Sequence record: NC_047820.1
Origin: Escherichia phage vB_EcoS_ESCO41
DNA: 50,800 nucleotides
Strand: one strand, 5' to 3'
Shown: in pieces, positions 6,926 through 7,673 of the stretch
Layout of the letters: each line of letters starts with the position of its first letter
Position numbering within the stretch: the first letter of the stretch is position 1
Program-made: the position numbers and the translations under genes
Notes under the pieces: model-generated
Told to the model about the DNA's origin: nothing
Database searches by the model: none
Seen by the model: only the letters and a program-made list of their open reading frames with translations

Positions 6926-7112
6926 GATCAAGAAGGGTGACGTGATCAAGTGTATCGGCGCGCGCGGTTATGAGTTCTTTAATGGCTGCGAGTACACAGT
7001 GGAAAAAGTTGATTCCCAGGGATACGTTTATGTCTACAGCGACGAGGGGAACAAGGTCGCGATCGACTACCCTGTTTGCCAGACGTATGGAACTTTTAAA
7101 AAAGTTGATTGA
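6897..7112 (+). CDS. hypothetical protein; likelier start ATG 6918
   Basis: ORF-track frame; the ATG at 6918 has a GGGGAAAG RBS-like sequence. Confidence 0.4.
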   Translation: MKMGKVSMSKIKKGDVIKCIGARGYEFFNGCEYTVEKVDSQGYVYVYSDEGNKVAIDYPVCQTYGTFKKVD

Positions 7113-7137
7113 CAACCATCTCACTGACTGGTATCTT
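7109..7137 (+). promoter_or_regulatory. candidate sigma70 promoter TTGACA-N17-TATCTT upstream of tRNA genes
   Basis: -35 7109-7114, -10 7132-7137; weak -10. Confidence 0.3.
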
Positions 7138-7288
7138 TAATCTCGTAAACAGAAGAGGCCACCAAGTGGCAACGAGCGGTTCGTAATCCGCAAATTGAAA
7201 TAGCGCATCGCCAAAAGCAAAGTGTAAGTCGCAATACAATCGAGGCATTGTGAAAGCCTGCCGGATTCCGTAACCGGCCTTCATTTAA

Positions 7289-7366
7289 GCTCCGCTAGCT
7301 CAATTGGAAAGAAGCAACGACCTTCTAAGTCGTAGGTTACTGGTTCGAACCCAGTGCGGAGCGCCA
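7289..7366 (+). tRNA. tRNA-Arg (anticodon UCU)
   Basis: Acceptor GCTCCGC/GCGGAGC, anticodon stem ACGAC/GTCGT with loop CTTCTAA, T-arm ACTGG-TTCGAAC-CCAGT, encoded CCA; D-arm irregular. Confidence 0.75.
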
Positions 7367-7370
7367 ATTA

Positions 7371-7469
7371 CTCGGCGTTGCTAATATTGGCCTTAGGGTG
7401 GAGCTTATACCTCCATAAAGCAATCGACAGATAATCGATGTAATGCAGGTTCGATTCCTGCCGCCGAGA
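7371..7469 (+). tRNA. atypical tRNA-like gene (about 99 nt): anticodon-type loop CTTATAC (UAU) plus an extra 29-nt region with a second hairpin
   Basis: Acceptor CTCGGCG/CGCCGAG, T-arm GCAGG-TTCGATT-CCTGC, hairpins TGGAG-CTTATAC-CTCCA and ATCGA-CAGATAA-TCGAT; not a canonical class I or II fold. Confidence 0.4.
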
Positions 7470-7487
7470 CTAATAACGAGGTTTGAT

Positions 7488-7673
7488 ATGTTTGAGGTCA
7501 AGCTAACTATTTTGCTAATGGGGCGCACATGCGCATCTTGTAAGCAAAACTTTGAAGCAAAGGTTGAGGCCAGTAGCGCCGAAGAGGCCGTTTCAAAGGC
7601 AAAGAAAATGAGCGGAGTCGATACAACGACTCATAAATTTTTAGTTAATTATGTAAGGGGTATTTCATGCTGA
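7488..7673 (+). CDS. hypothetical protein (62 aa)
   Basis: ATG 7488 with RBS AACGAGG; the longer ORF-track start 7443 would overlap the tRNA-like gene. Confidence 0.4.
   Translation: MFEVKLTILLMGRTCASCKQNFEAKVEASSAEEAVSKAKKMSGVDTTTHKFLVNYVRGISC

Follow-up and report, generated by a model that had tools for sequence, protein, structure and literature searches.

A conserved phage tRNA gene family with two isoleucine-type anticodon arms, possibly an AUA reader built on a tRNA-Ile(GAU) body

What kind of tRNA carries two anticodon arms? The question is raised by an element at positions 7371-7469 of the genome of Escherichia phage vB_EcoS_ESCO41 (NC_047820.1; the window hereafter is the whole stretch of 50,800 nucleotides (nt), all coordinates are positions in it, and all parts of the element lie on the + strand). 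A sequence-only reading had described here, next to a tRNA-Arg(UCU) gene, a tRNA-like gene with a proper acceptor stem and T arm, two hairpins and an extra region of 29 nt, and had offered three explanations for it: an unusually long variable arm, an insertion, or decay into a pseudogene. All of these parts are indeed found where it placed them. We find that the element belongs to a conserved, selected RNA gene family, and that its key feature is the extra hairpin, whose loop is a copy of an isoleucine anticodon loop. The hairpin as such had been seen; the GAU anticodon loop that it copies, the second cloverleaf register that it creates and the CTA in place of CCA at the 3' end of the gene had been missed.

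The element has several properties of a class I tRNA (a 7-bp acceptor stem, a 5-bp T stem, a T loop of the TTCRANY type, TTCGATT, and A73), but its length (99 nt versus about 73-78), its two anticodon-type hairpins and its rejection by tRNA finders set it apart; as noted before, it is too long for class I and also falls outside the rules for class II. Starting from the 5' end, the acceptor strand CTCGGCG (7371-7377) pairs at seven out of seven positions with 7462-7468, and positions 8-9 (TT) separate it from the 5' strand of the D stem, GCTA (positions 10-13; 7380-7383). A D-loop-like segment, ATATTGGCCT (7384-7393), has G18 and G19 at 7389-7390, and the TGG motif in it shows no variation across alignments A2 and A3 (A3 comprises 79 aligned sequences of the window's kind); it is followed by a first candidate for the 3' strand of the D stem, TAGG, with G26 (7394-7398). 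Hairpin 1, TGGAG CTTATAC CTCCA (7399-7415), has a 5-bp stem and a 7-nt loop of the anticodon type (C32 U33 U34 A35 U36 A37 C38), with the anticodon UAU encoded by TAT at 7406-7408. The 29-nt stretch after it contains hairpin 2: a linker TA, a second D-stem 3' strand AAGC (7418-7421) and A26' (together 7416-7422) precede ATCGA CAGATAA TCGAT (7423-7439), again with a 5-bp stem and a 7-nt loop, and with GAU at 7430-7432. GTAAT (7440-7444), a variable loop of 5 nt in the second of the two registers described below, leads to the T arm GCAGG TTCGATT CCTGC (7445-7461; five out of five pairs), and the acceptor 3' strand CGCCGAG with the discriminator A73 (7462-7469; the A is at 7469) closes the structure, whose single-sequence fold has a z of -2.65. 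A single C-to-T change then gives CTA (7470-7472) where relatives have CCA, and the 3' end in the window reads ACTA; the copy in phage ETEP102 has the CCA end and is otherwise identical.

Is such an arrangement maintained, or is it an accident of one genome? Relatives, collected by BLAST against GenBank phages and then by scanning IMG/VR and a set with one genome for each bacterial species for sequence patterns, amount to about 160 distinct sequences: about 141 with YAGAUAA as the loop of hairpin 2 (loop 2) and roughly 18 with CUGAUAA. Their carriers are mutually unrelated (Drexlerviridae, Schitoviridae, Autographiviridae, Ounavirinae, jumbo phages, many IMG/VR contigs and a few bacterial genomes). 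In A3, 100% of the cells of the acceptor stem, 92% of the hairpin 1 stem, 99% of the hairpin 2 stem and 99.7% of the T stem are paired, with double compensatory changes at 7/7, 5/5, 5/5 and 3/5 pairs, respectively (20 out of 22 pairs in these four stems together). When 26 pairs are considered, 92-96% of the cells are paired and 22 pairs show double changes, compared with 61-65% paired cells in shuffled alignments (none of 500 shuffles attains the observed values) and 37-50% in controls with slid partners. The loops are kept as well: loop 1 is CTTATAN in all relatives except one (TTTATAC), loop 2 is C/TAGATAA throughout the approximately 141 sequences with A33, and both are retained in 19 sequences recovered by a pattern in which neither loop was specified. 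A3 shows no variation at A73, 108 out of 117 distinct relatives have ACCA encoded at their 3' end, and the 7/5 acceptor/T configuration holds across the family. In 30 of the 79 sequences (e.g. L026, L024 and L008) the pair closing the loop of hairpin 1 (31:39; A3 columns 34/42) is replaced by a C-A, A-A or C-C mismatch, which leaves effectively a 9-nt loop around CUUAUAA; in the window this pair is G-C. A decaying pseudogene, or a tRNA broken by a chance insertion, could be suspected from the missing ARAGORN call, an Rfam score below threshold and the change from CCA to CTA in the window copy, but massive covariation and two invariant loops in about 160 distinct sequences from unrelated phages make this explanation almost certainly wrong, and at the family level it is excluded: all helices of the window copy are intact and the CTA end is its only blemish.

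How do automated tools see the element? ARAGORN does not call it, and the Rfam tRNA model (RF00005) matches it only in part, with 26 bits against a gathering score of 29, and takes hairpin 2, not hairpin 1, as the anticodon arm; a search with all Rfam families at permissive thresholds over 7100-7520 returned nothing but tRNA. No tool proposed a canonical tRNA with different boundaries, and the ends of the element stay as first described. On other members (L269, L271, L283, L265, L062, L013, L294, L288 and L108) ARAGORN reports truncated tRNA-Ile(gat) genes of 72-73 nt, tRNA-Val(tac), or 'tRNA-???' with anticodons of two or four bases, so automated annotation of the family is unreliable. Among the GenBank phages in which BLAST found copies, four records label the element as a 'tRNA-Ile' of 98-102 nt and the rest leave it blank. 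Most members of the family are missed or mislabelled by ARAGORN, and AUA readers are consequently under-counted in phage tRNA complements and codon-usage analyses. In phage BEK6 (MN158208; L003, 418-531) a coding sequence for a 'hypothetical protein' (QGH76922.1) on the opposite strand covers tRNA-Arg together with the first part of the two-armed tRNA, probably as an artefact of annotation.

Where does hairpin 2 come from? The anticodon loop of E. coli ileV, a tRNA-Ile(GAU), is CTGATAA, and loop 2 of the family is this loop with a single change, U33 to A. A scan for the version with U33 yielded the further subgroup of roughly 18 sequences, in which loop 2 is CTGATAA, unchanged. Members of this subgroup (L306, L315 and L317) align with ileV end to end, including the variable loop AGGTC. 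For example, L306 reads AGGCTCG TA GCTC AGTGGTTA GAGC A, then (ACCGG CTTATAC CCGGT GT), then AGTGT CTGATAA GCACA AGGTC GTGGG TTCAAAT CCCAC CGGGCCT ACCA, and it departs from the ileV layout only in the bracketed insert of roughly 20 nt, which follows the D arm, precedes the anticodon arm and carries the UAU hairpin. Given this alignment, end to end but for the UAU insert, we read the family as a tRNA-Ile(GAU) chassis to which a second anticodon arm, the one with UAU, has been added. The alignment with ileV was made directly, since a BLAST search of E. coli with a type E sequence lacked the sensitivity to recover ileV; among GenBank phages type E had no match. The window copy is more diverged from tRNA-Ile1 and is tied to the U33 subgroup through intermediate subtypes that share both loops. 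With bacterial tRNA-Ile(GAU) the family has in common A73, the 7/5 acceptor/T architecture, U12-A23 and an anticodon loop C-N-GAUAA; it differs in the additional 17-nt hairpin with the UAU loop and, in the window, in A33 of loop 2 and an expanded D loop. Among the isoleucine identity elements of E. coli, the window copy has A73, GAU together with A37 and A38 in loop 2, U12-A23 and C29-G41, but not C4-G69 (the position is G4-C69).

Which cloverleaf does the element form, then? Two overlapping ones can be drawn. In register 1, which is read from the 5' side, hairpin 1 (UAU) takes the place of the anticodon arm, with hairpin 2 as part of the variable region. In register 2, which is read from the 3' side, hairpin 2 (GAU) is perfectly placed as an anticodon arm, 5 nt of variable loop follow it, and hairpin 1 becomes an insert within the D loop; in the window this register comprises a D stem GCU/AGC, A26, the 5-bp stem and the loop CAGAUAA (A33), with the D loop interrupted by the extra hairpin. 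The long variable arm and the insertion of the sequence-only reading are both right, being the two registers of one molecule. When the hairpin 2 region is deleted in silico, ARAGORN calls a tRNA-Ile(tat), and when hairpin 1 is deleted it calls a tRNA-Ile(gat), for the window and for two other subtypes alike. In every subtype hairpin 2 keeps the canonical distance of 4-6 nt from the T stem, and in three of them, the window's among these, the D-stem 3' strand is repeated directly before hairpin 2. This strand, which follows hairpin 1 (AGC, 7419-7421 in the window), is the better kept of the two: G10-C25, C11-G24 and U12-A23 are paired in 92, 94 and 94 of 94 distinct sequences, and the A3 pairs 10-55, 11-54 and 12-53 are paired in 79 out of 79, including five double changes from U-A to C-G. 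The strand before hairpin 1 retains two to four pairs (10-25 in 14, 11-24 in 92, 12-23 in 88 and 13-22 in 51 of the 94). Where position 12 is C (nine sequences, in four sequence combinations), both 3' strands have G in place of A each time, and in the Xanthomonadales-type copies both are perfect (e.g. GCTC...GAGC...GAGC). Nearest-neighbour energies put the two registers within about 1 kcal/mol of each other for the window and do not discriminate between them; as tertiary contacts decide, this near-equality leaves bistability possible and proves nothing.

The short types of the family (86-92 nt) are arranged differently. They have a canonical D arm, with hairpin 1 following N26 as an anticodon arm should, and their hairpin 2 has a fully covarying stem of 3-4 bp in the position of a variable arm, with spacings of 5 nt and 4-5 nt to the T stem. 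A 2-nt linker and a 3-bp stem, still with the 7-nt loop, bring them closer to a class II variable arm. ARAGORN calls them tRNA-Ile(tat) of 90-91 nt and takes the same hairpin 1 as the anticodon arm.

What would a tRNA with two such arms be for? The reading that we favour, with a probability of roughly 50%, is that the element is a functional phage tRNA of the isoleucine family, in which the UAU arm reads AUA and the GAU arm is kept for charging by the isoleucyl-tRNA synthetase (IleRS) of the host. A plain UAU anticodon is a poor substrate: E. coli IleRS prefers the lysidine anticodon over UAU by a factor of 360 in kcat/Km, and Mycoplasma mobile has changed its IleRS (Arg865) to use tRNA-Ile(UAU) (PMC3575796). 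The isoleucine identity set consists of the anticodon, t6A37 and A73 (a strong element), with G34 A35 U36 and A38, and with C4-G69, U12-A23 and C29-G41 as minor members (PMC9976931). Hairpin 2, which keeps G34, A35, U36, A37 and A38, may have been retained as the feature through which host IleRS attaches isoleucine to the molecule, and such a GAU handle would sidestep both the poor acceptance of UAU by IleRS and the need for TilS and lysidine. Hairpin 1 (CUUAUAC, with U33 and A37) would be used on the ribosome to read AUA, a codon rare in the host and enriched in the phage, much as the neighbouring tRNA-Arg(UCU) would supply AGA.

How could one molecule offer both arms? In the window subtype the switch would be a re-pairing of the D-stem 5' strand with one of its two 3' strands: GCU paired with the AGC after hairpin 1 would put the GAU arm in the canonical place, and GCU paired with the UAG before hairpin 1 would put the UAU arm there, so that one arm could be shown to the synthetase and the other to the ribosome. 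In the short types an alternative stacking would put either arm under the D stem. A natural 'two-headed' tRNA of this sort, which separates the identity anticodon from the decoding anticodon by switching the hairpin under its D stem, is a tentative proposal, and we hold it as possible and no more. That the gene is expressed, that its product carries isoleucine, which arm decodes and that the registers switch are all things we infer from sequence comparison.

The two loops suggest how the tasks may be divided. Loop 2 keeps G34 to A38 and changes only U33, which is the U-turn residue of decoding and not a determinant for IleRS, which argues for hairpin 2 as an identity handle; A33 would cripple decoding and leave the IleRS determinants intact. 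The evidence points to UAU as the decoding arm, since loop 1 has the full signature of C32, U33 and A37 while loop 2 is without U33 in about 141 sequences (versus roughly 18 that keep it), and since hairpin 1 is the only possible anticodon arm in the short types. The same loops could also both be anticodons, UAU for AUA and GAU for AUC/AUU, by alternative stacking or pairing of the arms: two complete cloverleaves are present, each called tRNA-Ile once the other arm is removed, the CTGATAA subgroup has a fully canonical anticodon loop, and in phage PhiM1 the element is the only tRNA annotated within the 691-bp stretch examined. We nevertheless consider double decoding unlikely, as U33 is near-universal in decoding tRNAs and A33 prevails here, and as the host tRNA-Ile(GAU) is abundant and a second reader is little needed. 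About 13 out of 20 viral contigs with at least 10 tRNAs, moreover, have a separate canonical tRNA-Ile(gat), so the element fills the AUA slot in these large sets.

Several points weigh against charging through the GAU arm and decoding through the UAU arm. In the short types the GAU loop sits on a 3-bp stem in the variable-arm position, and IleRS bound in its usual way would not obviously reach it. A33 is not accounted for by mimicry of an IleRS substrate itself, and U33 persists in one subgroup. Conservation does not extend to the minor E. coli determinants: the window lacks C4-G69, and pair 29-41 of hairpin 2 is C-G in only 37 of 79 sequences. Misreading of AUG by a UAU anticodon is documented for E. 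coli ribosomes (PMC3575796), and the reading offers no way round it. The closest relatives of this phage do without the gene. Finally, the window copy ends in CTA, not CCA; ends of this kind can be repaired by the CCA-adding enzyme of the host.

A further difficulty is that AUAA in loop 2 is complementary to UUAU in loop 1, and conservation of the loops would fit a loop-loop contact equally well. The AUA(A) of loop 2 would then be a codon mimic that pairs (5'-AUAA-3' with 5'-UUAU-3') with the anticodon loop, within one molecule or between two, and shields the anticodon from nucleases or unwanted modification or regulates its availability. Both loops are invariant, as such a contact would have it, and A33 could reshape loop 2 to present positions 35-38; as neither loop varies, covariation offers no test of the pairing. 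The contact would, however, consist of four A-U pairs only, and it leaves unexplained the invariant G34' and Y32', the tRNA-Ile(GAU) body, and the exact canonical spacing of hairpin 2 to the T arm and its own D-stem partner. We regard self-masking as improbable.

Could the extra arm instead change the amino acid? Together, a UAU anticodon, an extra arm and A73 recall the nematode nev-tRNA-Ile(UAU), for which such recoding has been proposed: the long arm would make the element a class II-like substrate for leucyl-, seryl- or tyrosyl-tRNA synthetase (LeuRS, SerRS or TyrRS), and AUA would be read as another amino acid. The nev-tRNAs with UAU are reported to be charged with leucine in vitro (PMC3333845, PMC4300185). 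In the phage family, however, the loop of the extra arm is an exact isoleucine anticodon loop of 7 nt and not the 3-5 nt of class II arms, the body resembles tRNA-Ile, and there is no leucine, serine or tyrosine identity signal in the sequence; recoding of AUA across very different phages and hosts would also harm phage proteins. We find this explanation highly doubtful. Apart from the extra stem-loop between anticodon arm and T arm, shared with class II tRNAs in general and combined with UAU in nev-tRNA-Ile(UAU) (PMC3333845), the family differs in the fixed 7-nt anticodon-type loop, in the D-stem partner (in the window), in the lack of leucine, serine or tyrosine features, and in host domain and origin. 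A plain class II tRNA is likewise rejected: the 29-nt region has a 7-nt 5' linker and a 7-nt loop of fixed sequence, the anticodon is UAU, and hairpin 2 has its own D-stem partner in the window subtype.

Three other identities were considered and rejected. Allo-tRNAs (PMC5389517) are also non-canonical bacterial or phage tRNAs from metagenomes, often with UAU, but they have 8/4 or 9/3 configurations and bodies like those of serine or selenocysteine tRNAs, whereas the family is 7/5 throughout. An intron-containing tRNA is rejected on sequence grounds, as no Rfam intron family matches and the extra segment is a hairpin of 17-21 nt with a conserved anticodon-type loop that lies outside either anticodon loop. 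The usual AUA decoder of bacteria and phages, tRNA-Ile2, in which CAU is converted to the lysidine form, has the same presumed job and a different architecture; neither loop of the element has C34, so TilS cannot act on it, and a scan with CTCATA in place of CTTATA gave three hits, none of them family-like. Phage T5, which also infects E. coli, uses the TilS route, with a tRNA-Ile2(CAU) and not a plain UAU tRNA. The tRNA region of T5 (L329; 30284-33083 of NC_005859) has, besides, several annotated 'stable RNAs' and 'tRNA-like stable RNAs with unknown functions' of 103-144 nt, without a BLAST match to the element.

The favoured reading, a GAU arm for IleRS and a UAU arm for AUA, has partial precedents. 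The tRNA-Ile(UAU) of bacteria without TilS, of the M. mobile type (PMC3575796), shares an anticodon that TilS cannot modify, the presumed reading of AUA, and the same problems of IleRS recognition and AUG misreading. Charging is solved there by a change in IleRS (Arg865); here it would be solved by a GAU arm on the tRNA, in proteobacterial hosts with ordinary IleRS and in a molecule of 99 nt versus about 76. Anticodon-arm mimics are bound by synthetases outside tRNAs too, as in the thrS operator of E. coli. The HIV-1 tRNA-like element bound by LysRS (PMC5113203) embodies the concept of a copied cognate anticodon loop as a handle for a synthetase. Those mimics lie in mRNAs or viral genomes, where they regulate or recruit, whereas here the mimic would lie in a tRNA and serve its own charging.

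If this reading is true, phages have invented a way of decoding AUA without TilS and without an altered synthetase, by means of a second anticodon arm on an ordinary tRNA-Ile. Identity and decoding would be uncoupled inside one natural molecule, the same uncoupling that synthetic biologists seek for codon reassignment (AUA being a favoured target), and a five-arm, possibly bistable architecture would be added to the known tRNA shapes. It would be the first bistable tRNA with two anticodon arms, and the mechanism would be new in kind. A full-text literature search, with most subscription journals outside it, found nothing published on alternative cloverleaf registers or on a second, conserved isoleucine anticodon arm in a tRNA; some annotation pipelines already label these genes 'tRNA-Ile'.

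Does the genomic setting fit a supplier of AUA decoding? The assignment of the CTTATAC loop to an isoleucine-type reader of AUA, made earlier from the loop itself, is supported by the context. The neighbouring tRNA-Arg(UCU) (7289-7366, + strand) was correctly recognised, being called by both ARAGORN and Rfam (57.7 bits), and the element begins five bases downstream of it. AGA and AUA are classic rare codons of enterobacteria, and in the open reading frames (ORFs) of the window ATA occurs 10.0 times (15% of isoleucine codons) and AGA 7.3 times per 1000 codons, compared with about 4.4 and 2.1 per 1000 in E. coli. A tRNA-Arg(tct) gene is a recurrent neighbour of the element at several other loci. 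The window looks like the genome of an E. coli siphophage in the Drexlerviridae. Its closest GenBank relatives are Nouzillyvirus phages such as XT34, together with the unclassified ETEP102, and among close relatives the tRNA-Arg(UCU) and the two-armed tRNA-Ile are present or absent jointly, as one cassette (7286-7475): XT34, P817, CJ19, TH21 and others lack exactly this cassette, with about 96% identity in the flanks, the promoter-like site and the downstream ORF. A search of 5,426 complete E. coli genomes found the cassette in none.

An accessory cassette of this kind could also be a decoy, i.e. a non-translating look-alike of tRNA-Ile whose role is to soak up a host factor, for example an anticodon nuclease, another tRNA-targeting defence or a modification enzyme. 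Phage tRNAs that counter tRNA-targeting defences exist, and A33 could render loop 2 uncleavable. But the family encodes a CCA end, has A73, pairs perfectly in its acceptor and T arms and keeps a canonical UAU loop, all of which indicate a tRNA that can be charged and can decode; the element takes the slot of the AUA reader in near-complete phage tRNA sets, and we know of no defence nuclease specific for tRNA-Ile. A decoy is very unlikely.

Upstream of the tRNA pair lies a promoter-like TTGACA-17-TATCTT (7109-7137, + strand), with 10 of 12 matches and a TG motif in a consensus scan; it is a consensus match only, and the ETEP102 record annotates a promoter at the homologous place. Between this site and tRNA-Arg there is a leader of roughly 150 nt (7138-7288), conserved in relatives with and without the tRNAs, which holds small hairpins including a T-arm-like GCGG TTCGTAAT CCGC; Rfam matches nothing in 7138-7288, and shuffled sequences fold about as well (z = -0.78).

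How far has the gene spread? Full-length relatives found by BLAST come from Drexlerviridae of E. coli and Klebsiella (ETEP102, PCEc3, BEK6, EC3a and the Opt-79 group), the 127-kb Vibrio phages Pylo and River4, Vibrio phage 12VC501 (Schitoviridae), Pectobacterium phage PhiM1 (Autographiviridae), Vibrio phage WD615, the Ounavirinae Arno18 and Wc4, and the 309-kb Xanthomonas phage Xoo-sp13; an Acinetobacter phage is also among the carriers. The scan of about 100,000 bacterial species genomes gave 35 hits, with chromosomal copies in Xanthomonadales (L283 from Xanthomonas nasturtii, L269, L271, L292, L286, L293 and L294). One copy is identical in sequence in Stenotrophomonas, Xanthomonas and Lysobacter, and Rhodanobacter carries two copies. 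The flanks of the X. nasturtii copy look chromosomal and not like a prophage (they encode a TonB-type outer-membrane barrel, a Trp halogenase, an acid phosphatase and an efflux protein); with no prophage context around this copy, the idea that the gene is always phage-borne was dropped. In a variant of the family (L289 and L298) a third mini-hairpin, CCC GCAA GGG, lies between the UAU and GAU hairpins. Some of the viral contigs that carry the family also have, beside large tRNA clusters, transfer-messenger RNA genes as called by ARAGORN (8607-8989 of L026, 13287-13722 of L057, 307-783 of L067 and 8981-9364 of L119).

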